Shown: positions 26,716 through 39,521 of the stretch, piece by piece | How the letters are laid out: each line of letters opens with the position of its first letter | Position numbering within the stretch: the first letter of the stretch is position 1 | Source of the DNA: a virus | Length of the DNA: 64,000 bases | Reading direction: 5' to 3' (one strand) | IMG/VR virus record: IMGVR_UViG_3300008111_000001 | The notes under the pieces: generated by a model | What the model was told of the DNA's origin: nothing | What the model saw: the letters and a program-made list of their open reading frames with translations, nothing else | The model's database searches: none | Made by a program: the position numbers and the translations under genes

Positions 26716-27855
26716 TCAAATGAGAGAAGAAAGATTCAGAAAAACATCAGACACAGCTTTATCAAAAGATATAGAAACGTCAAAATTTGTATGAGAATTA
26801 TCTATAAATCTTTGGACAGCCTCACTAAAAGTCAAGGGAGGAGACTGAAGTTTTCGAAGATATTTATAGTATTTTGTTTCACTATAATTGTATAAATTGC
26901 CAGTTTCTTCTTGTTCCTGGGAAGAAACACGAACGTCATCTGGATCAATACCATAATAATCAAAATAATCCAAAAGCTTTTCTGTGCCTATGAGCTGTAT
27001 TTCGGAATGAACTCTTTCAGAAATACAAGGATTAGGCCAAGGAATAGAAGAGATATCATTTATAGATATCTTCTCCCAGTTTGAGAAAGCATTCTGTATA
27101 TAAGAAAAGTCAATGTAAAAAGTTAGAGGATTTATAGGACCAGGAAGATCATAAAAAGGATTAGTGGAAAAATTAGGATTTTTATGGATCTGGAACAAAC
27201 ATTCAGGAATATTCATTGTTAAATCAAGATTGGAACCAGAATTCCAAATCCAATTATACGCAGCGTTGATTATTCCCGAAACATTGTTCTCATATCGTGT
27301 AATCTCATCCATGCTGTCAAACATGGGATTACACAGAGTAGCATTATTATAGAAGTTAAGAAGTGGTGGCAAATACACTTGAGCGGAAGAAAAATCTACA
27401 CCTTGAAGTGAATGCGACATAAAATACATGGTTATCTGATTAGGATAATGAACATCATTATATACAGAATAAGAAACTAGATAAACAGTCCAAGGCATTG
27501 GAAGTCTGTATATGTAGTTTTTAGAATTATCATAATCTATATTGTCAACCACAGCTGGTATTACTTGAATATTATGATAAGTAGGAGGACGTTCAAAAAT
27601 TACAAGTTTATTATCAACATGAATTAGTCCGGGAGGAACAATTCCAGTATCAGAGTGAATAGTGCCTTTGGTAAAAGCAGTTTGAAGATGTTTAATAATA
27701 GGATTAATTAAATCTTTTGAAATTGTCGTTTCAGAACCATTAACGTTTAAGCCATTTCTAGAATCTAAAATAGATATTACATCTTCGTAATGAGGATGTT
27801 TTATGTTTGAATAGTTATGAGATGATGAAATATAATTAAAGTTTGACATATTCAT
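26716..27855 (-). CDS. prokaryotic E2-like (Prok-E2_D/PRTRC-B-like) protein, paralogue 3
   Basis: IFERPP..LPMPWTVY..MYF..YLPPLLNFYNNATLC: N-x7-C spacing as in UBC HPN-x7-C. Confidence 0.6.
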   Translation of the reverse strand: MNMSNFNYISSSHNYSNIKHPHYEDVISILDSRNGLNVNGSETTISKDLINPIIKHLQTAFTKGTIHSDTGIVPPGLIHVDNKLVIFERPPTYHNIQVIPAVVDNIDYDNSKNYIYRLPMPWTVYLVSYSVYNDVHYPNQITMYFMSHSLQGVDFSSAQVYLPPLLNFYNNATLCNPMFDSMDEITRYENNVSGIINAAYNWIWNSGSNLDLTMNIPECLFQIHKNPNFSTNPFYDLPGPINPLTFYIDFSYIQNAFSNWEKISINDISSIPWPNPCISERVHSEIQLIGTEKLLDYFDYYGIDPDDVRVSSQEQEETGNLYNYSETKYYKYLRKLQSPPLTFSEAVQRFIDNSHTNFDVSISFDKAVSDVFLNLSSLI

Positions 27856-29419
27856 CCTGAGAAATTATTTGATAAGAGGAAGTGGATGAAAGTGGGAGAA
27901 AATAATTATTATCTGTATAAGCTTTCAACATTTCCAAATACATTTGATGAGGGGTCATTTCAGAGGTAGCAAAATATATAGCGCTATCGGGGTAGTTATA
28001 AATGATAGTGGGATAATTTTGAGAATTTAAAACAGCTTCGTTTATGTCTAAGCCTTTAGAGTATCTTAAAAGATTTCTAAAGTGAGTCATAGGATTGCTA
28101 TGAGCAGGAGAATTAGCAAAAATAATATTTTTACTAAAAGAAGTATATTCGGAGAAAATCATATTATCAGCACAAGATTTGTTAATAATTCCACGAATAT
28201 AATTAGAGTTTAAAGTGTAAGAAGAAGAGAGTTGTTTGGTAGAAATTTGCTTAAATGTATAAGTATAAGCGGAGAGATGATTGAAATCATTAATAAAGTA
28301 TATTGAATTTTTAGCTTTGGCGGATAAATCTTTAGCAATGATATCATATTCCTCTTGACAAGCTAGAACTTCAGTAAGAGAAAATGTAGAAATGATAGAT
28401 AAGAAAGCGTAATGAAAATATTCGTGACCAAGATAACTAAAGAATTTTTTAGCACCGTAGTTTTTGTATACATTATAGATTTTAGTAATTTTATTTAATC
28501 CGGACTTTTCAATTGTTTCAGAGTCAGGAAAAAACAACTTATGCAAATGAGGAATAGTTGAAAATATTTCTGAAGATTTTTCTTTATTTAGCAAAGAACA
28601 AAGAATTGAACTATAGAGATGTGACCAAGGATTCATAAGATCTGAATTCCAAGATCCAGCAAAGAACTCGTTGATCATATAAGAATACATAGAAGCAGGA
28701 GTTAGATTGCTTTGATCTAAGGGGAGATCATTTAAGCTATTTGAATAACATATTCTTCCATCTTGATAGGTATTGGGAAGAAAAGTCGGATAATAGTTAT
28801 CTGACATTGAAGTCAAAGACTTGTGAGAAAAATACATGTAAGAACTTGAACCAGGATAAAGTGGATTAAAAGAGTAAATAGTCCAAGGTATCCATATTGT
28901 TATAGGTGGAAGCTTTTTCCTGTAGCTACTTGCACCAGATGGTTTATAGTCTACAGTGGCTTGAAAAGGTGGACGCTCAACAAAAATAGTTCCATCAGAA
29001 GAAACATATCTAGTAGCAATAGGATAAGAAGAAGTAGGACAAACAGACTGTAAAGATTTAGAATAGTTTTCAGAAAATTTTTCCATAGATATTGAAGCAG
29101 AAAGAACAGCTTTTGCCTCAATAAAATGAGGAGTGGAATAACAGTAGCCTGAAACAGAATCTATATTTAGTTGTTCAGGAACACTAGAAAAGATTTTGTC
29201 TACGGCATCGAAGTCATAAGGACCGGAATTGTATGAAAAAAAATCTTTTGGAGTGTAACGATTATCCCATTTGGCAACAGAAGATGCGGAAGAAAAAGCG
29301 TAACGAGAAAGTATAGAACTTTCTCCAAATCCATCGGAGTACTCTATCTGATAAGATGAAAGAGAGTCTGAATTAATAATGCTGTGATCGACATGGGAGT
29401 ATTGAGAATCTAAATACAT
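27836..29419 (-). CDS. prokaryotic E2-like (Prok-E2_D/PRTRC-B-like) protein, paralogue 2
   Basis: FVERPP..IWIPWTIY..MYF..YYPTFLPNTYQDGRIC, matching the PN-x7-C / NxYxDGxIC E2 motif. Confidence 0.7.
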   Translation of the reverse strand: MYLDSQYSHVDHSIINSDSLSSYQIEYSDGFGESSILSRYAFSSASSVAKWDNRYTPKDFFSYNSGPYDFDAVDKIFSSVPEQLNIDSVSGYCYSTPHFIEAKAVLSASISMEKFSENYSKSLQSVCPTSSYPIATRYVSSDGTIFVERPPFQATVDYKPSGASSYRKKLPPITIWIPWTIYSFNPLYPGSSSYMYFSHKSLTSMSDNYYPTFLPNTYQDGRICYSNSLNDLPLDQSNLTPASMYSYMINEFFAGSWNSDLMNPWSHLYSSILCSLLNKEKSSEIFSTIPHLHKLFFPDSETIEKSGLNKITKIYNVYKNYGAKKFFSYLGHEYFHYAFLSIISTFSLTEVLACQEEYDIIAKDLSAKAKNSIYFINDFNHLSAYTYTFKQISTKQLSSSYTLNSNYIRGIINKSCADNMIFSEYTSFSKNIIFANSPAHSNPMTHFRNLLRYSKGLDINEAVLNSQNYPTIIYNYPDSAIYFATSEMTPHQMYLEMLKAYTDNNYFLPLSSTSSYQIISQDEYVKL

Positions 29420-31422: not shown

Positions 31423-31714
31423 TCTGCATTACCTCTAGCATTTGTTTGCGCGATTGCTGCAAAGTTTCATGGAAAGCTCTACGAGCCTCATCGGTAGCAA
31501 AAGCAATCTGACCAACTAAGGCTTCAGTAAAAACTGCTTGCTCACCATAGCTAAGAACAAGTGTGGCGACTTGTTTCTCTATGGCTTCGAGAGATGTTTC
31601 AAGGTTTTTAAGACGGTCTTCAACCTGAGCTGCTAGACCGTTTATAATATCTTGAAAAAATTTTGTAAGAAACTCTGCGGTTGTTTTATCTAGGTATTCG
31701 TTGCTATCTGTCAT
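31328..31714 (-). CDS. hypothetical coiled-coil protein
   Basis: 128 aa heptad-rich. Confidence 0.7.
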   Translation of the reverse strand: MTDSNEYLDKTTAEFLTKFFQDIINGLAAQVEDRLKNLETSLEAIEKQVATLVLSYGEQAVFTEALVGQIAFATDEARRAFHETLQQSRKQMLEVMQNASKGILADENPRVASAVNNLASEKLSDTNA

Positions 31715-32352
31715 ATTTCATACCAATCCTGATTGTTAGTGACATAAGAAACTAAAGATAAGTCCATAAGATATGAAATGGAACAAATATCTTGACGAGT
31801 TACCTTAATCTGATCAACAGATAAAGGAGACTTCATATCTGGAATAAAAGCTCCACTGTCAGATTTGCGGGCAGCAAAGTGACCGCATTTCCAAACAAAA
31901 GCGGTACTGTCGTATGACTCACTGGACTGCCAATAGTGTGCTTTAAATATTCTAGATATAGGCTTACCGTCGATAACGGCTCCGCCGTAAGAAACAAAAC
32001 CTTCGTTTGTAGGAACGCCCATCTTTTCGTTTTGAGGATAATTAGTTACAGCATTTCCGGTGGCAATAGACTTTAAATAAGCGGAGAAATCTATTGCATC
32101 AACAAAAACAGCAGTACTGCTAATAAGCTTACCCTCAGGAGAAGTCTTGCCAATATCAATCTTCATCTTCAAAGCTTGATGCCAAGGACGAATAGCTAAA
32201 AATCCTGATTGAGTCTTAGATCTAAACCACTTTTTATAAAGTTCTTGATGAAATTCTTTATTATCAGAATTCTTCAAAGTATCAGTAGGAGAGCCGTCTT
32301 CGTCAAGAGAAGATAGAAAATCTTCCACATTACTGTAAGCGTTATCAGTCAT
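31711..32352 (-). CDS. hypothetical protein
   Basis: 213 aa, AGGAG RBS, directly after the AAA gene. Confidence 0.75.
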   Translation of the reverse strand: MTDNAYSNVEDFLSSLDEDGSPTDTLKNSDNKEFHQELYKKWFRSKTQSGFLAIRPWHQALKMKIDIGKTSPEGKLISSTAVFVDAIDFSAYLKSIATGNAVTNYPQNEKMGVPTNEGFVSYGGAVIDGKPISRIFKAHYWQSSESYDSTAFVWKCGHFAARKSDSGAFIPDMKSPLSVDQIKVTRQDICSISYLMDLSLVSYVTNNQDWYEI

Positions 32353-32364
32353 TTTTTCTCCTTT

Positions 32365-33969
32365 TTATTTCCATGTTACTGAGGCTGGCTGTTTTTGGGG
32401 TGATGTTTTCGAAAGCATTATTATAGCATCATTCATCTGCTCTGTGGATGCCCAATCCCACTGCTCTAAGGCATACTTGTACATTGAGACAACTGTTTCA
32501 TTGTGTTTCATCCATATGATATTCTTCATTTTTGGAGCATAAGTAAGAATATCATTAGTTTCAATGGGTCTTAGGGATTCGGAAACAACATAAAACTTTG
32601 TTTCTCTGATAAGAGAAACTATCTCTGCACCAGTCATATACTGGGTGGCTTGAGCAAGAGAATCATAATCATAAGAATGATCAGTATCAATCTTGGAAAG
32701 ATGTATTTGGAAGATGTGTTTGCGCTCTTCAAAAGAAGGTAGACCAACAAACATAATTTTGTCAAAGCGATCAGCACGAAGCATCTCTGGTCTCAAGGAA
32801 TCAAGAGAGTTTGCGGCACACAACAAGAAGGTGTCCTCTGGAAGTTCTTGCAAGCCGGTAAGAAACTCGCCATGGACACGATCAGTAGTGCCACCATCTA
32901 CATGAGAAGAGCTGGATCCACCGGAAAGGTCACGACCAAACTCGTCAATCCAAACACATAGAGGAGACATAGCTTTAATTTGCTTGAAGACAGAACGCAT
33001 ATTGGCCTCTGATTGACCAATGAAAGAATTCATCACTTGACTAATGCCGGTTCTGGCAAGATCAAGATCGAGTTCTTTAGCAGTTGCTTGACAGATGGCC
33101 GATTTGCCAGTGCCCGGTACTCCAACCATAAGAAGTCTTCTAATTGGAGTAACACCAAAGGAGGCGGTGCGTTGCTGATCTTTGCGCAACACAGAGGTAC
33201 GGCGAATGATATCTTTAATATTATCAAGGCCACCAATATCAGCAAAAGATATTGCAGGCTTAACTATTTCAAGAATACCATTCTTCTTTATATTGGCCAT
33301 CTTGACGTCATAAATATATTTGGGATCAATCTTAGAATGATTGACGACAGACATCAAGCAAAGGTCAATAAATTGAGATTCAGAGAGACCAATGCCAGCG
33401 TTCACGACATCTTTTATTGAAGTATCAGGTAAAAGACGGTCATGAGCTGCTTCATTGATATGGGTAACAATCGTAGAAAGTTCTTGAGGAGTTGGATAAG
33501 AATCTTCTAAGATTGTAAAAAGATGGGCAAAGTCTTCTGGGCATTCGAGAGCAGAAACAAATATAAACTGCAGAGGCATTGCAGCAATATCGTCAGACCA
33601 AAACGCTGTACGATAAAGAGATTTGAAATGAGAAAGTACAGAAGAATAAGGTGAAATGGCCTCAGCGGGGGAAGAAGGAATATTGACAATATAAGTAGAA
33701 CGAGTAATGGACTTATCTGTCATAAGATAATGTAAGGCTACTTGGGGATCAAATGTAGTTGTGTGAGACTCAGTACTCATATCAGGAAAAGCAGGATTTG
33801 GTACAAGCACAGGTTTCCATTGTCCATCAACAAACTTAGAAAAGCCGTTAACAAAATCTATAGAATAAAAGTTGCGAGATATAGTAGATGTAATGATATC
33901 AGTAACTCTTGAAGGATCAGAAGACTGAATCCAAAGGTTAGGATATCCGAGTTTAATTTTGTCGAACAT
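32365..33969 (-). CDS. AAA+ ATPase (Ycf46/Cdc48-like; degenerate N-terminal plus active C-terminal AAA module)
   Basis: Walker A GVPGTGKS, Walker B CVWIDE, sensor/SRH CAAN..L.PEMLRADRFD. Confidence 0.92.
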   Translation of the reverse strand: MFDKIKLGYPNLWIQSSDPSRVTDIITSTISRNFYSIDFVNGFSKFVDGQWKPVLVPNPAFPDMSTESHTTTFDPQVALHYLMTDKSITRSTYIVNIPSSPAEAISPYSSVLSHFKSLYRTAFWSDDIAAMPLQFIFVSALECPEDFAHLFTILEDSYPTPQELSTIVTHINEAAHDRLLPDTSIKDVVNAGIGLSESQFIDLCLMSVVNHSKIDPKYIYDVKMANIKKNGILEIVKPAISFADIGGLDNIKDIIRRTSVLRKDQQRTASFGVTPIRRLLMVGVPGTGKSAICQATAKELDLDLARTGISQVMNSFIGQSEANMRSVFKQIKAMSPLCVWIDEFGRDLSGGSSSSHVDGGTTDRVHGEFLTGLQELPEDTFLLCAANSLDSLRPEMLRADRFDKIMFVGLPSFEERKHIFQIHLSKIDTDHSYDYDSLAQATQYMTGAEIVSLIRETKFYVVSESLRPIETNDILTYAPKMKNIIWMKHNETVVSMYKYALEQWDWASTEQMNDAIIMLSKTSPQKQPASVTWK

Positions 33970-34004
33970 TGTCGTATCACCGTAATACTAGTTGTAGGCT
34001 TTCT

Positions 34005-34056
34005 AAAAAATATAGTGAGTGGGGGGAGGGCACTCATAAAGAGTAACCCTCCCCCC
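34005..34056 (-). terminator. rho-independent terminator-like hairpin after the Ubl gene
   Basis: GGGGGGAGGG/CCCTCCCCCC 10-bp stem with inner ACTC/GAGT stem; T-run on the minus strand. Confidence 0.65.
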
Positions 34057-34096
34057 GCCGAACAGCGTTATAAAACAGCTGTTCGTAGATGGGTAA

Positions 34097-34351
34097 TCAG
34101 CCCTTCTCGCCAGCACGACGATGGAACTCGACGTTCTGGCCAGGCTGGACTACCGCGTTCTCGTCAAGCTTATCCTTGCCACAGTAGGCGACAGCATCGC
34201 TTGGGATACCCCAAATCTTGCTGAACTGCTCGCGGATTTCCTTGATTGACTTACCAGCAATGTTGCTGGGCTGGTTGTAAACACCATAGCGGATATTAGC
34301 CATTCCGGTGGGACGATTTGGCTGAGCTCCGCTGTTGCTTGAGGTTTCCAT
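34097..34351 (-). CDS. prokaryotic ubiquitin-like protein (Prok_Ub/PRTRC-C-like)
   Basis: 84 aa beta-grasp-like (GKSIKEIRE..IPSDAVAYC..LDENAVVQPGQNVEF) ending RRAGEKG-stop; strong AGGAG RBS; adjacent to E1. Confidence 0.8.
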   Translation of the reverse strand: METSSNSGAQPNRPTGMANIRYGVYNQPSNIAGKSIKEIREQFSKIWGIPSDAVAYCGKDKLDENAVVQPGQNVEFHRRAGEKG

Positions 34352-34371
34352 TTTGTTATCTCCTATTTATA

Positions 34372-35181
34372 TTATACGGTAACTGTTTCATTTAGGGCTG
34401 AATGCATTCTATTGTAGGGTTCAGATTTGCCTATGCCCAAATCGAAGAAGATCTCTGTCTCTTCTGGACTCTGGTTGGACACTATTGTTTTCTGAACTCT
34501 ACCTAGAATGAAAGATGCAACCGCCATGTTAGTGGCAAGAAGCTGTGTTCCACCTTCAATTTCAGAACGCTGTTGGCAGCTGAGTTCACCAGGATTCTTG
34601 TCCGGAGGATTATGATATTCTGGATGGAATTCAGCAGGGTGAGAAGTAATCTCTACGCCGTCACGCTTCTGATAATGATAGATAGAACCAAACAAGGCGT
34701 CGTCATTACCGCCTGTAAACACATCAATATTATTAAGTTTTGCTGCAGCGTCAAATAAAATCTTTCTTGCAGCAAAATTATCTACAACTGCAAAGACAAC
34801 ATCGTTTTCTCGAATGAGATCACTTGCTTTAATTTTGGGACTTTCTTCGTCTGCAACACCAGAAAAGTTGTCATCTACAACCCACTTTGCAACAGGGATA
34901 ATAGTAGTTTTTGGGAACTGAGGAACTAGCTCAGTAGCTTTAACTACAGCTTTGTTGCCAAGTTTAGTAAAGTCTTGACGTTCTTTATTCTTCTCTTCAT
35001 ATGTGTCACCATCTACAATAATGAGAGCAGAATTAGGAAACTTCCATTCAAGAAGACGAACAAGGCCAGCGGCAAGCCAAGTGCCGATGCCTCCAGCTCC
35101 AACAAGAATAAAACGCTTGCTATCAGTAGGATTCATAAGTATCTCTTTCATAAATATATTCTGAATAAATTGTGCATCCAT
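34372..35181 (-). CDS. E1-like ThiF/MoeB adenylyltransferase (likely start 35136)
   Basis: ILVGAGGIG, DGDTYEEKNKERQ, VVDNFAAR, putative catalytic Cys in GELSCQQR..QLLATN. Confidence 0.9.
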   Translation of the reverse strand: MDAQFIQNIFMKEILMNPTDSKRFILVGAGGIGTWLAAGLVRLLEWKFPNSALIIVDGDTYEEKNKERQDFTKLGNKAVVKATELVPQFPKTTIIPVAKWVVDDNFSGVADEESPKIKASDLIRENDVVFAVVDNFAARKILFDAAAKLNNIDVFTGGNDDALFGSIYHYQKRDGVEITSHPAEFHPEYHNPPDKNPGELSCQQRSEIEGGTQLLATNMAVASFILGRVQKTIVSNQSPEETEIFFDLGIGKSEPYNRMHSALNETVTV

Positions 35182-36823
35182 CAGAAGTTATGGTGTCAGC
35201 ATAGTGTTCCGGTTCTTTGTCTTTAGGTGAAGATATGTAATTGACAATTCTGGAAGAATACCTAGGACAAATTGCAGTATAATAATGTTCGCACTTGTAG
35301 CAATCAGAATCTTTTGAGTAAACATCATATTTACCCATAAAATTATCAAAATCAAATGCGTCTAAAGATGTTACTTGAATGGCGCAATAACAATCTTCTT
35401 TTTTCTGAGAGCAGCAAAGAGTAAGTTGCTCATCATTAGTGGGTAGATCTTTATCTAACCATTGGTCCTGCAAATAAGAGCTTATTAGATCTGGGGTAAG
35501 TCTAAGAAGCATAAAGTTGTTTTCTATGTCTTTGGTAAGCATGTAAAGTGCTGCATCCTCAGAGATATTTCTGTCTCGACAGTACTCAGACATGTTATAA
35601 ACTACTTGGTCTACTGGCGTGTCCGGTTCACATAAGGGAACGTCACAAAGAGCGCAACAGTGGTCAACATAGATAGAATTAATAGGGACATACGCAAAAC
35701 AGGATGGGCAGCTAAACTTGCCTTTTTCGCTAGAAGGGTTTGCTTCGCAAACAAGAACGACTTGATTTTCATATCCTATAGCCTCTTCTATCATATCTAA
35801 TATATGAGTAGAATAATTTATGAAACCAATTAATTGAGTATTAGTGCGTCCAGCCGCTGTAGTAGTTTGAGTACGCGCCTGGGGCTGGGGCAGTACCTGT
35901 CCATGAAGATCCGTGCGAGTACCCCCCATATTGGGGGGGCTGACTTTTTTTACTTTATCAGTCCACCCTACAACTTCAGCATCGGGAGCTTTATCAAGTG
36001 TGTATCCTTCAAATACATCTTCGGGATCAAGCTTGTAAGCTTTACCTGCCATCTGCATTTCGATATAATACTGAGTAGCACCGTTGTTAACAGACTTCTG
36101 CCAACCAAAGGTAATATGAATTCCGTCAAAGTCAGCTTGATCAGCGTGATCAGTTCCCGAAGCGTAGGCGCTCATTCCGGGATGACTGTGAACAGATCCA
36201 ACAATTAGAACATTGTCAGGCTTAATCTGAGCGATGCTATCTGGATCATAGTTGCAATGAACAGAAGTATTGGTTTGGTCAGGAACGAGAATTCCCCATC
36301 CATCAGAACCTTCTTTATTCTGATCAAAGGTCAACATGACGATAGACTCAGTGCCGTGCTGAGCCTCTACAAGCCTAAAGAATTGATCAAGCTTATCTAT
36401 AAGAATATAGGGAATTGGTGGCATATCATAGATAGCTTCTTCTTCGACACTAATGAAGTCAGAGCCTAGTTCTGGACGAGCAATAGTTACTGTGCGACCA
36501 ACAAAATTGTTGACAACTCTATAAATTTGAGAAGACTTAACAATAACAGGGGGAGGAGCAACAGTGGCAGTCTTGTTGTTGTTATTGTAAGTAACAGTGC
36601 CTGTATTAGAGGAGGGGGTGTTTGTGGGTTTAATTTCTTTTTCCTCGTTGGCAATAATATAATATATATTAAAACCAAAAGATTCGATGCATTCGCAGAT
36701 ATCAGATCTATCTGCTACGAAAGTAGGAAGACCATCAGATGTAATCCAAAGTGGATTAAGGTCTTCTAGTGTAAGATATTCTTCCTCATTTTCTTCGAGA
36801 GGAAGAGTCTGTTGATCGGACAT
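35123..36823 (-). CDS. JAB/JAMM metalloprotease (deubiquitinase-like) with Cys-rich C-terminus
   Basis: E of ESIVML plus VHSHPGMSAYASGTD (HxH-x7-S-x2-D); C-terminal CPSC..CCALC..CC..CYC..CYKC. Confidence 0.88.
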   Translation of the reverse strand: MSDQQTLPLEENEEEYLTLEDLNPLWITSDGLPTFVADRSDICECIESFGFNIYYIIANEEKEIKPTNTPSSNTGTVTYNNNNKTATVAPPPVIVKSSQIYRVVNNFVGRTVTIARPELGSDFISVEEEAIYDMPPIPYILIDKLDQFFRLVEAQHGTESIVMLTFDQNKEGSDGWGILVPDQTNTSVHCNYDPDSIAQIKPDNVLIVGSVHSHPGMSAYASGTDHADQADFDGIHITFGWQKSVNNGATQYYIEMQMAGKAYKLDPEDVFEGYTLDKAPDAEVVGWTDKVKKVSPPNMGGTRTDLHGQVLPQPQARTQTTTAAGRTNTQLIGFINYSTHILDMIEEAIGYENQVVLVCEANPSSEKGKFSCPSCFAYVPINSIYVDHCCALCDVPLCEPDTPVDQVVYNMSEYCRDRNISEDAALYMLTKDIENNFMLLRLTPDLISSYLQDQWLDKDLPTNDEQLTLCCSQKKEDCYCAIQVTSLDAFDFDNFMGKYDVYSKDSDCYKCEHYYTAICPRYSSRIVNYISSPKDKEPEHYADTITSDGCTIYSEYIYERDTYESY

Positions 36824-36877
36824 TATTTCTCCTAAATATTAATATTTCCAGTTATTTGTATATTTATGTTTTTTAAA

Positions 36878-38245
36878 TTAGAAAGGTGATTCATTATCTT
36901 GTGCATCATCTGCATTTTGGCAGGATTGACATATGCCAGAATATTTTTCGCTCATGATAAAGGTATCAAATTCGGGATGGGTATAATAAATACCATTATC
37001 ACACTCTCCACAATATTTATATGATACACCAGGCTCAGATGGTAGATAAATCCACACATCAGAAAGAGACAACCAAAGAACACTGCCACCTTCAGGGTGA
37101 TGATATTCGTTAGTATTTATGGCTAAAACATAACCTTCAAAACAAGAATCGCATATGAAAGGTGAATGAGCAGAAGAATTAGGACATATGTCTGTTGTGA
37201 AATATTCTTCACAGTCTTCACAGCTCCAACAGTTTTCTGAATCTTCTTCTTCATCAACGAAAACAGGTGCAGCAGTACTCTGGTTTAGTTTAACGTTTTC
37301 AGAATTTTCAATAACATTGATAACAGGAGGCTGAGTAGTAGAAGAATTGTAAGCCATTTTAAACCAATCAAATACTTTTGCCGCAGGAAGTGTGTAGTCG
37401 GAACGAAGTATTTGATTAACAGGCTTAGGGATTGTTGTATCAGTATAATATGCTTGATAGTTGCCGGAGATGGCATCTGCCAAAGTTAATGGCTGACCAT
37501 TGGAATAATGCTTATCTTGATGGTCGCGATCTTTAACTAAAACTGGAATCCAAATATTAGGATCTAAAGTCCATTCGTATCCATTTTTATCAGAATAGTT
37601 TTGCCATGCTATAGGATCGTGAAGATGCAACTCTTTACTATTCTCGCGGTAAAATCGAGGGCCATCAGTTTCGCTCATATTCTGATCGTTATAAGCTTCT
37701 GTTCCAGAGCAACGATCAAGAACTTTTGCTAGCTTTTCACCGAAAGGATACTTGGATATATCTTCGTTGTGATACAAACAAATCCAACCAACACCATTGC
37801 CACGATAGCCTTTGCAGTTGATGTTTGGAAGATTAACATGATACAAGGGAGCATGAGGATATGTGATGGGAACTGGGGAATAAAACGTTCTAGCACCATA
37901 AATATTGCCGTCCATAAGATCGGCAATAACTATTCTGTATGGTTGAGCAACATAATATTTTGTGGCATTTTTGTCACCTTCGTATTGTCCCCAGTTAATG
38001 TAATACATTCCGGGTTTGTGTTGATAAACAATTTGAGTGTGATTGCCAGCAGAACGAAGAGCTAACAAACCTGAGCCATCAACAGGCATGAGACCAGTAT
38101 CAATGTAGGAATAGTTAGAAAAAGAAGTGTAAAAAGAAGTCAGATCTTTATCAGTGACATGATCTAAACCAAAAGAATTAACTGAAGAACGGAAAGTAAG
38201 ATTTCCCTCTTCAGTGTTAATGAAAGAGTATTGAACGTTGCTCAT
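36878..38245 (-). CDS. prokaryotic E2-like (Prok-E2_D/PRTRC-B-like) protein with C-terminal Zn fingers, paralogue 1
   Basis: QPYRIVI..RTFYSP..APLYHVNLPNIN..GVGWICLY; C-terminal CEDC, CDSC, CGEC, CQSC. Confidence 0.65.
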   Translation of the reverse strand: MSNVQYSFINTEEGNLTFRSSVNSFGLDHVTDKDLTSFYTSFSNYSYIDTGLMPVDGSGLLALRSAGNHTQIVYQHKPGMYYINWGQYEGDKNATKYYVAQPYRIVIADLMDGNIYGARTFYSPVPITYPHAPLYHVNLPNINCKGYRGNGVGWICLYHNEDISKYPFGEKLAKVLDRCSGTEAYNDQNMSETDGPRFYRENSKELHLHDPIAWQNYSDKNGYEWTLDPNIWIPVLVKDRDHQDKHYSNGQPLTLADAISGNYQAYYTDTTIPKPVNQILRSDYTLPAAKVFDWFKMAYNSSTTQPPVINVIENSENVKLNQSTAAPVFVDEEEDSENCWSCEDCEEYFTTDICPNSSAHSPFICDSCFEGYVLAINTNEYHHPEGGSVLWLSLSDVWIYLPSEPGVSYKYCGECDNGIYYTHPEFDTFIMSEKYSGICQSCQNADDAQDNESPF

Positions 38246-38266: not shown

Positions 38267-38671
38267 TTATTCTTCTATTTCTTTGAAGATGCTGTCGATA
38301 CTTTCGTCAACGTCTTTGGAGAAATCACCAAAAGCCCAAGCAAACCAATGCGGGTCATCATTAATGACTTTGATTAGGCTAAGCTTGCCTTCTAAAGTTT
38401 CGTGAATTTCAACGAGATCAGCAAGACGAGATAGGGCTTTGGAAAGTTTTTTGAGATCATTCTTATTTCCGCCAAGCATAAGAATATTCTTGAGAACAGG
38501 AATACCAGATATGTAGAACTTTTCAGATTCTACAATAGCTGTAATTCTATCTGTGATGGCATCGTAAGATTCTTGTATTTCATTGCTAGCTTTACCGGCC
38601 ATGGAAAATGAAAAGTTAAAATTGTCCATACCAATTTTAGAGGATGGAGAAAATTTATCAGGATACGTCAC
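38267..38671 (-). CDS. hypothetical helical protein, first gene of the Ubl operon
   Basis: 134 aa, GGAG RBS. Confidence 0.7.
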   Translation of the reverse strand: MTYPDKFSPSSKIGMDNFNFSFSMAGKASNEIQESYDAITDRITAIVESEKFYISGIPVLKNILMLGGNKNDLKKLSKALSRLADLVEIHETLEGKLSLIKVINDDPHWFAWAFGDFSKDVDESIDSIFKEIEE

Positions 38672-38933: not shown

Positions 38934-39072
38934 AGTGTTGTGGTGTTACTGTCGTGAAAAAACTGGCTAGTATAATATCAATCTGTTTTTCTGGGGTTTT
39001 GTTCTTTAATCTATTATTAATAACTTTAGCGCTGAGGCCAAGTAAAACAACTGGAAGTATTAAGAGGTGCAT
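38863..39072 (-). CDS. small membrane-anchored hypothetical protein
   Basis: N-terminal hydrophobic segment. Confidence 0.5.
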   Translation of the reverse strand: MHLLILPVVLLGLSAKVINNRLKNKTPEKQIDIILASFFTTVTPQHFGEFNEDIKDEIETSTRKRENSY

Positions 39073-39521
39073 AATGCAATATTCCTTTTTGCGGATCGGT
39101 ATTTTGCGCCATCAGTTCCTACAAAATTTAGGAAAAGTTCACTAAGAGCTAATATACCGAGACCTAGTGTATTGGTGAAGTTAAAAATAATATTTAAAAG
39201 GAACAAAGTAAAAGCGGTTAAGAATCCTACGATAGGACCCGAAAGAGCAACTTTTATTTTTGACTCATTGGATAAACCAGGAGCCTTAACAAATGCTACA
39301 GCAAATAATGGAAATGGAATAAAAATAGGCAATGATGCTTTAGAGCCAAGTTTTCTGGCCATAAAATAGTGAGATATCTCATGAGCAAAAAGAACTAGTA
39401 TGGCAAAGAAAACAAAAGAACTATGAACTATAGAGTAGTTGATTGCAGCTACAGCAGATGCGCTAGCTATAGTCCATGTGATTTTTGGTATCTTACGAAA
39501 AAAAGATTTTATCTTGTTCAT
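39060..39521 (-). CDS. minimal M50 (site-2) membrane zinc metalloprotease
   Basis: HEISH in a TM segment, IALSGP-like VALSGP, LNFVGTDG (N..DG). Confidence 0.75.
   Translation of the reverse strand: MNKIKSFFRKIPKITWTIASASAVAAINYSIVHSSFVFFAILVLFAHEISHYFMARKLGSKASLPIFIPFPLFAVAFVKAPGLSNESKIKVALSGPIVGFLTAFTLFLLNIIFNFTNTLGLGILALSELFLNFVGTDGAKYRSAKRNIALCTS

Follow-up and report, generated by a model that had tools for sequence, protein, structure and literature searches.

The stretch of DNA analysed here (the window, 64,000 nucleotides in length) spans positions 129594-193593 of a single 193,906-bp virus record of IMG/VR, IMGVR_UViG_3300008111_000001, for which CheckV estimates a completeness of 92%. 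An earlier note on this DNA had placed within it a ubiquitin-like conjugation operon with genes for an E2-like protein, a JAB protease, an E1 enzyme and a ubiquitin-like protein (Ubl). Four co-oriented open reading frames (ORFs) are found on the minus strand at 34097-38245, with exactly the layout and coordinates first given, and the motifs quoted for the E2-like protein, the JAB, the E1 and the C-terminus of the Ubl are all present in the translations. The carrier is an uncultured tailed phage: its genome has genes for tail proteins, a portal and the large terminase, alongside those for a DNA polymerase and a ribonucleotide reductase. Given these virion genes and the viral nature of the record, the Prok-E2_D-type E2-like/JAB/E1/Ubl set is carried by the phage itself. 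The four-gene arrangement lies far beyond chance, as judged by Pfam matches, colinearity and the ratios of non-synonymous to synonymous substitution rates (dN/dS). Positions below are those of the window, and all genes and features located by them lie on the minus strand.

The Ubl (84 residues; 34097..34351) is the last gene product of the set. Its AlphaFold model, computed from the family alignment, has the strand and helix order beta-beta-alpha-beta-beta-beta (pLDDT 80); the N-terminal tail is disordered, a beta-grasp core follows it, and the C-terminal tail is free. A Foldseek comparison of this model with the PDB returned ubiquitin variants, SUMO1, FAT10, NEDD8 and the ubiquitin of Bacteroides fragilis, with a probability of 1.0 and TM-scores of 0.55-0.67. 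There are 101 homologues, at 60-95% identity. The protein ends in RRAGEKG, the last five residues of which (AGEKG) are invariant in 38 sequences; the chain stops at the Gly in 35 of the 38, and the other three carry two extra residues, which are NW, TF or SL. Direct searches of Pfam, NCBIfam, PHROGs and PADLOC gave no match for the Ubl, and no member of its family matches ThiS or Prok_Ub. The link to the ThiS family runs through intermediates only: distant cassettes reached via the E1 have a small gene at the same place after the E1 gene, one of them a member of the Pfam ThiS family (28.9 bits, cut-off 22.5), and hhalign matched the Ubl profile to the small proteins of these cassettes with probabilities of 95.6% and 97.0%, in an alignment that takes in the AGEKG/AGDKG end, followed by one or two further residues. 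The fold model, the Foldseek matches, the profile link and the invariant terminal Gly together predict that the Ubl is a beta-grasp protein of the ThiS/ubiquitin superfamily with an exposed, deeply conserved C-terminal glycine, which bears out its description as beta-grasp-like in the earlier note. The gene is rich in G/C-ending codons and is preceded by a strong AGGAG ribosome-binding site, and it may be highly expressed.

The E1-like adenylating enzyme is encoded by a 269-codon ORF at 34372..35181 and matches Pfam ThiF (PF00899) at 47.3 bits, well above the cut-off of 28.1. Its true start is probably Met16, at 35136, since a stop codon precedes the equivalent position in orthologues; the protein would then be 254 residues long and the overlap between the JAB and E1 genes would vanish. 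The enzyme consists of a single adenylation domain of ~254 residues and contains no rhodanese domain. The motifs GAGGIG, DGD..E..N..RQ, VVDNF..R and GELSC are found in the window, and in the family alignment GxGGxG, DGD..E..N..RQ, GNKA, VVDN..AR and a single Cys within S-C-Q are invariant. This residue, C202 in the numbering of the 269-aa ORF (codon 34576-34578), is the predicted catalytic cysteine, since it is invariant and lies ~67 residues beyond the DN motif. When compared with the PDB, the family profile matched Uba4, MccB, UBA5, SAE2, UBA7, NAE and MoeB with E-values of 7e-4 to 0.06 and with the adenylation motifs aligned, the best matches being Uba4, MccB, UBA5 and SAE2 (E 7e-4 to 3e-3); TcdA was matched as well. 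Among deposited phages, tblastn found relatives of the E1 only in the Bacillus jumbo phages vB_BceM_WH1 and Edson, at 26-28% identity. The G+C fraction of the E1/Ubl region (34001-36000) is 0.42, against 0.32-0.39 around it.

The JAB/JAMM (MPN+) metalloprotease (566 residues; 35123..36823) matches Pfam Prok-JAB (PF14464) at 26.2 bits, above the cut-off of 25 (E 7.5e-6). The JAMM catalytic motif, E159...H212-S-H214-x7-S222-x2-D225, is encoded at 36149..36352, and each of its residues is at least 95% conserved in 31 orthologues. Its N-terminal domain is also conserved, and its C-terminal region is rich in Cys. The protein is predicted to process the Ubl and to release it from conjugates.

The E2-like protein (455 residues; 36878..38245) opens the set. 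It is built of a UBC-type core resembling Prok-E2_D (approximately residues 25-230), a helical extension and a Cys-rich C-terminal tail with four CxxC pairs, and its translation contains the motif by which it had been recognised, LYHVNLPNINCKGYRGNGVGWICLYH. The active-site loop (residues 134-159; 37769..37846) comprises YH136xxLPN141, a seven-residue insert and G153-W-I-C156. Across 48 sequences, whose identity falls as low as 26%, residues N141, G153, W154 and C156 do not vary, and H136 and C144 are at least 90% conserved; C156 (codon 37778-37780) is likely to be the thioester cysteine. The family is sizeable yet closed: clustering of its metagenome homologues leaves more than 460 groups at 90% identity and 210 at 50%, and a tblastn search of 50,697 deposited phage records gave no match.

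A set of genuine Prok-E2_D proteins (alignment A5) was obtained by following the nearest plasmid relatives of the E1. On plasmids of Stanieria and Butyrivibrio, proteins above the threshold of Prok-E2_D (PF14460, the same family as PRTRC_B, TIGR03737, according to the NCBIfam comparison) are encoded close to PRTRC-like ThiF genes. Two members of the set score 83.7 and 40.7 bits against PF14460, and the rest carry a precomputed assignment to it. The profile of the phage E2-like family (A3) was aligned with this set by hhalign over 106 columns, with a probability of 94.2% and an E-value of 1.1e-7, and both a DTG(L/W)LP motif and LYHxxLPN are aligned; the comparison of alignment A1 with A5 gave 62% for homology of the Prok-E2_D core. 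The YHxxLPN and GxIC motifs are common to both; in the genuine family the GxIC element is found 8 residues after the Asn, whereas in the phage protein GWIC follows 15 residues after it, because of the seven-residue insert. The AlphaFold model of the E2-like protein (pLDDT 80) has an order of secondary-structure elements that fits UBC/E2 enzymes, and on re-alignment with VIA about 30 of the top 50 matches were E2/UEV enzymes, covering model residues ~42-230. The nearest ESM Atlas clusters are viral, with 13-15% of their members assigned to PF14460 (score 0.96). From these profiles and the predicted fold we conclude that the protein is a putative, divergent Prok-E2_D-type E2, outside the Pfam family by that family's own gathering threshold of 25 bits, which it does not reach. 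What had been guesses from motifs, for this protein and for the Ubl, can now be placed on profile-profile and fold evidence, though direct hidden Markov model (HMM) searches are silent. Of the family models by which the earlier note would have identified the genes, ThiF and Prok-JAB are matched above their cut-offs, Prok-E2_D and Prok_Ub are not matched and, of the PRTRC models, PRTRC_ThiF and PRTRC_A are matched below theirs.

The Cys-rich tail of the E2-like protein (residues 338-455; 36881..37234) resembles a zinc ribbon or PHD finger. Its conserved pairs, C342/C345, C365/C368, C412/C415 and C439/C442, would form two predicted zinc sites; PHD fingers were found as weak structural matches (Z ~4), and PHD/FYVE domains as insignificant sequence matches (E 0.1-1) when the profile was compared with PDB sequences. 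Most orthologues in the collected loci (L001-L048) end in [D/E]xPF-COOH (ESPF, EEPF, TEPF, DDPF and others), a sequence encoded at 36878-36892 of the window, and the zinc-ribbon tail that precedes it varies by more than 200 residues in length. The [D/E]xPF end looks like a docking tail for some partner.

Conservation of the block and the adjoining genes

A scan of IMG/VR yielded 48 loci, on contigs of up to 268 kb, and none of the 48 departs from the colinear arrangement of the four genes. A longer order is kept wherever the contig reaches that far: the gene for a 134-aa protein, those for the E2-like protein, JAB, E1 and Ubl, then the genes for an AAA+ ATPase, for proteins of 213, 128 and 95 residues, and for two large paralogues. 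The cassette is therefore shown to be conserved across a large clade of ~200-kb lake phages; a DNA similarity search of deposited phages with an 8-kb region gave no match. Relative to the two closest relatives, dN/dS is 0.03-0.04 for the E1, 0.05-0.08 for the Ubl and 0.11-0.13 for the E2-like protein and the JAB, and it stays at or below 0.22 for all four when two more distant relatives are added. The four-gene block is under strong purifying selection, the E1 and Ubl genes being the most strongly conserved.

Directly 3' of the Ubl stop codon there is a predicted intrinsic terminator or attenuator (34005..34096), formed by a double hairpin and a U-run, with a minimum free energy (MFE) of -46 kcal/mol and a z-score of -8.0. 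A G-run/C-run hairpin is found at the same place in 33 of 33 distinct loci, with a T-run next to it in most, and the median MFE is -35, versus -19 for shuffled sequences. The design of the stem, G5-8 paired with C5-8, is kept, while the remaining stem sequence differs between loci, so that the element is conserved in position and structure without conservation of sequence. Since the hairpin and U-run directly follow the Ubl stop, the Ubl gene is predicted to close one transcription unit and the AAA+ ATPase gene to open the next. The ATPase gene comes after the Ubl gene in all loci; in the four most divergent (L042, L044, L045 and L047) an insert of ~2-2.3 kb lies between them, containing a variable gene for 350-390 residues and conserved genes for 172-196 and ~80 residues.

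Upstream, the four-gene set is the end of a tightly packed run of same-strand genes that starts at a WhiB-family gene and continues with a 317-aa gene, a small M50-peptidase-like membrane protein, a 91-aa gene and the conserved 134-aa gene. The last of these (38267..38671) is located 21 nt from the E2-like gene. It lies directly upstream of that gene wherever the contig extends so far, the one exception being L040, a locus that begins within the E2-like gene; it has a dN/dS of 0.09-0.25 and is probably co-transcribed with the E2-like gene. The flanking 134-aa, 128-aa and 95-aa genes had no family match in the libraries scanned. The membrane protein (153 residues; 39060-39521) has a partial match to Peptidase_M50 (site-2 protease), including an HExxH-like HEISH, and its gene is kept in many related loci. 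The surroundings of the cassette comprise WhiB, the AAA+ ATPase, a single-stranded DNA-binding protein (SSB) and other non-structural genes, and the virion genes are found on the opposite strand, 5' of it in the genome. Scans of the neighbourhood with the family libraries are in keeping with the earlier note, according to which genes for thiamine or molybdopterin are absent from the vicinity.

The second unit opens with the CDC48/FtsH-type AAA+ ATPase (534 residues; 32365..33969), which matches Pfam AAA (E 2e-23), NCBIfam CDC48 (1.4e-34) and phrog_8638 (3e-65). Related ATPases are found in many phage records of unrelated groups, for instance in phages of Mycobacterium, Pseudomonas and Rhodobacter. 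The proteasome-beta/Ntn peptidase family PF00227 has no match in the phage genome. Directly after the ATPase comes a 213-aa protein (31711..32352) with no family match, which is as constrained as the E1 (dN/dS 0.03-0.10) and has the invariant motifs LYKKWF, SRIFK, WKCGHF and a C-terminal DWY. Its identification as a capsid fragment was rejected, the only leads being sub-threshold ESM Atlas matches (score 0.89, 122 shared features), which are not trusted. Further downstream, two proteins of 527 (27836..29419) and 379 residues (26716..27855) are paralogues of each other (hhalign 99.7%), and their joint profile matches genuine Prok-E2_D with a probability of 91% and an E-value of 1e-6, with the catalytic Cys aligned. 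Three of their orthologues touch PF14460 (E 0.013-0.08), and the Asn-Cys signature is kept in both, as PN...G.IC and N...LC. Their comparison with the operon's E2-like protein is suggestive only (hhalign probability 9-12%, P ~0.003). The pair is fast-evolving (dN/dS 0.37-0.76); for the 527-aa protein the ratio is 0.37-0.46 versus the two closest relatives and up to 0.76 when the two more distant ones are added. One orthologue of the 527-aa paralogue also has an EEPF end. The cassette is larger than first described: it stands at the end of a run led by WhiB, and a second unit with an AAA+ ATPase and two E2_D-like paralogues comes after it.

Relation to known ubiquitin-like systems

Operon type 6d of Iyer, Burroughs and Aravind (2006, PMC1779556, Table 1) is defined as a predicted operon in which a Ubl, a JAB, an E1-like and an E2-like protein each have a stand-alone gene, and all four are found in such an arrangement here. 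As for the fast-diverging alpha-helical companion and the alpha+beta domain at the N-terminus of the JAB that accompany this type, the flanking genes of the phage match no family and the N-terminal region of the JAB is conserved; DUF2016 has weak matches only in distant relatives of the cassette. The best relative of each enzyme, though weak, is a PRTRC component, and the cassette is best described, at the level of sequence, as a divergent, phage-borne offshoot of the uncharacterised PRTRC/6d operon type. The best NCBIfam match of the E1 is PRTRC_ThiF (TIGR03736; E 4.3e-6, 26.2 bits versus a cut-off of 144.75), and the sole credible NCBIfam match of the JAB is PRTRC_A (TIGR03735; E 2.5e-4, 20.7 versus 101.8 bits). 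Both kinds of system consist of separate E2-like, JAB, E1 and small Ubl genes on mobile DNA. On plasmids, the genes most closely related to that of the E1 belong to E2_D-JAB-ThiF cassettes, and the order E2-JAB-...-E1 is also that of the cassette on a Butyrivibrio plasmid.

There are also differences. In the phage, the E2-like protein has the seven-residue insert, the helical extension and the zinc-ribbon tail, the JAB is 566 residues long and has a Cys-rich tail, and the operon is followed by genes for an AAA+ ATPase and for two additional E2 paralogues; it is carried by a tailed phage of ~194 kb and not by a plasmid or an integrative and conjugative element. Searches of the phage genome gave no match to PRTRC ParB (TIGR03734) at E-values of up to 1, nor to PRTRC_C (TIGR03738, the Ubl) or PRTRC_E (TIGR03741) at up to 10. 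The parallel with PRTRC drawn in the earlier note was hence right in kind, as seen in the best matches of the three enzymes, but the scores are far below the cut-offs and ParB, C and E are missing.

The parallel it drew with Bil holds only as an analogy. According to PMC11601596, Bil (BilABCD, types I and II) is a bacterial, ISG15-like anti-phage defence made up of an E1 (BilD) that has tandem E1 domains, an E2, a JAB peptidase and a Ubl with Gly as its last residue. The phage cassette has the same four parts and the same expected chemistry. In contrast, its E1 is a single domain of ~254 residues, and it is encoded by a phage, whereas Bil is bacterial and aimed at phages. The PADLOC defence models were not matched except for weak hits of Cap2 E1-E2 models on the E1 (E 1.5e-5). 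By its E1 architecture, its location in a phage and the PADLOC scan, the cassette is not Bil. Nor is it type II CBASS, in which, comparably, Cap2 joins the adenylation of an E1 to the thioester chemistry of an E2 and the JAB Cap3 undoes the result: Cap2 is an E1-E2 fusion, whereas the two enzymes are separate in the phage, and the phage set contains neither CD-NTase nor effector and has a dedicated Ubl instead of the C-terminus of the cyclase as its tag.

A predicted conjugation cascade and its alternatives

We consider it reasonably likely that the four genes form a working ubiquitin-like conjugation cascade belonging to the phage. In this cascade the E1, with its single ThiF-type domain, would use ATP to adenylate the free C-terminal Gly84 of the tag, which would then be held as a thioester on the invariant C202 of the E1, moved to the invariant Cys156 of the E2-like protein and passed from there to an amine of the target, probably selected by the variable zinc-ribbon tail of the E2-like protein. 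The JAB would trim the rare precursors with residues after the Gly and would remove or recycle the tag. The two E2_D-like paralogues of the next unit would probably draw on the same E1~Ubl for other, faster-changing targets. Conserved residues and homology are the grounds on which we infer every step of this relay and single out C156 and C202. Our best guess as to its purpose is that it remodels proteins of the host or of rivals in the course of infection, and not that it builds virions; action on host or competitor proteins is favoured because the genes stand among regulatory and replication-type genes and not among virion genes, an argument from position only.

Several points weigh against a working cascade. 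Neither an E3 nor a target has been identified. Searches of Pfam, NCBIfam, PHROGs and PADLOC with the E2-like protein came back empty, 48 diverse members of its family have no match in Pfam at E-values of up to 1, and PF14460 finds nothing in the whole phage genome at up to 10. The match between A3 and A5 ends just before the proposed catalytic Cys, owing to the seven-residue insert, so that C156 is assigned by its invariance and by the GxIC pattern. Confidence in the model is low at the active-site loop, and the structural matches to E2/UEV enzymes are weak (Z 2.6-3.8, root mean squared deviation 4.6-6.3 Å); for the full model, Foldseek found nothing in the PDB below an E-value of 0.08 and a wide VIA search found no Z of 5 or more. 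Finally, the PRTRC/6d systems are themselves uncharacterised, and the 45 papers in which they are mentioned go no further than annotation.

The components could, alternatively, serve as a counter-defence device, in which the phage JAB strips the conjugates made by Bil or by Cap2-type CBASS enzymes of the host, or the E1, E2 and Ubl compete with defence proteins or mis-tag them; the activity that matters would then be interference with the ubiquitin-like immunity of bacteria. In bacteria, E1-E2-JAB-Ubl systems are known to act as anti-phage defences and to tag proteins of phages (PMC11601596), the E1 weakly matches Cap2 models, and the extra E2 paralogues evolve at the rates quoted above, as in an arms race. 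A deconjugase alone would be enough for this task, yet the E1 and Ubl are the most conserved components and the full set is present in 48 of 48 loci, and no component is close to Bil or Cap proteins; we regard this explanation as unlikely. A role in particle assembly, the Ubl tagging or chaperoning structural proteins as do TAPI (a Ubl) and TAPK (a JAB) of lambda, appears very improbable. Ubl-JAB pairs are documented in the tail modules of phages from the lambdoid and T1-like groups (PMC1779556), and the tagging of tail proteins by the Ubl of Bil affects assembly (PMC11601596), but lambda-type systems have no E1 or E2, and the phage cassette lies among non-structural genes on the strand opposite to the virion genes.

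The E1 and Ubl might instead be a sulfur-carrier or acyl-adenylate pair of the ThiS/MoaD/TtuB or MccB type, acting for example in the thio-modification of nucleic acids or cofactors, with the JAB maturing the carrier and the E2-like protein being non-catalytic. The profile link of the Ubl to a protein of the Pfam ThiS family is compatible with this, as are the matches of the E1 profile to Uba4, MccB, TcdA and MoeB, and E1-JAB-ThiS sets that serve in sulfur roles have been described (Iyer 2006, PMC1779556). The tag, however, ends in K-G and not in G-G. The E1 has no rhodanese domain and the phage genome encodes neither a rhodanese nor a cysteine desulfurase (Aminotran_5), although partners supplied by the host are possible; no genes for thiamine or molybdenum cofactor are found nearby. 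Moreover, there are three E2_D-like proteins with invariant Asn and Cys under selection, which a sulfur relay does not need. This explanation is thus clearly unlikely.

The working conjugation cascade, which we prefer, could be extended to a system in which one E1 and one tag serve three E2s as interchangeable target selectors and the CDC48-type AAA+ ATPase unfolds the tagged proteins, leading to reprogramming of the host or disarming of its defences. Such an extension is rather unlikely, and similarly low likelihood is given to its proposed division of labour, in which the E2 of the operon would select targets via its zinc-ribbon tail and the fast-evolving paralogues would act against changing host proteins. 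If true, tagging and unfolding would amount to viral reprogramming of the host proteome or disarming of its defences, the reverse of Bil.

In the literature searched, such chemistry has been described before only for bacterial and mobile-element operons, and no description of a complete phage-encoded E1-E2-JAB-Ubl set was found in what is searchable, which is not proof that none is published. Bacterial ubiquitin-like conjugation has only recently been shown to work, so far only as anti-phage defence (Bil and type II CBASS), and for the PRTRC/6d type, recognised in genomes as early as 2006, no function has ever been assigned. If phages too possess a complete and strongly conserved kit, this would show ubiquitin-like chemistry to be in use by both parties. 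With its 84-aa tag, an E1 of ~254 residues and an E2 with one invariant Cys, the cassette is also a compact test system for the 6d/PRTRC branch.

More distant relatives

The cultured Bacillus jumbo phages WH1 (gp215-gp216) and Edson share with the cassette a ThiF gene, whose neighbour in WH1 has a weak Prok-JAB hit, but no E2-like or Ubl gene is recognised beside it. In WH1 (locus L049) this neighbour is a protein of 460 residues that precedes the ThiF gene, and NADAR and SPFH/Band 7 proteins are encoded nearby. On plasmid pNP144 of Butyrivibrio hungatei (L050, 65562-78185) the order is E2_D - JAB - Rad52 - 113-aa - ThiF; this PRTRC-like run adjoins genes for an SSB, a helicase and the delta subunit of DNA polymerase III, and it resembles the replication module of a phage-plasmid more than it does a conjugative cassette.

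The cassette was also found on 11 contigs of metagenome-assembled genomes (MAGs; L058-L068), binned as Cyclobacteriaceae, Ectothiorhodospiraceae, Saccharibacteria, Limnohabitans and others, and these contigs are most likely mis-binned phage DNA. An attempt to derive the host from them was abandoned, as the bins span unrelated phyla and carry no usable host signal. The actinobacterial host named in the earlier note, whose sole basis is the neighbouring WhiB gene, is not sustained by these bins either. More distant versions of the order E2-like, JAB, E1 and Ubl occur on a few MAG contigs that are binned to unrelated phyla, which suggests a wider and older lineage of the cassette. In L068 a compact set, composed of a 488-aa protein followed by JAB, E1 and Ubl, is found beside an aconitase gene.

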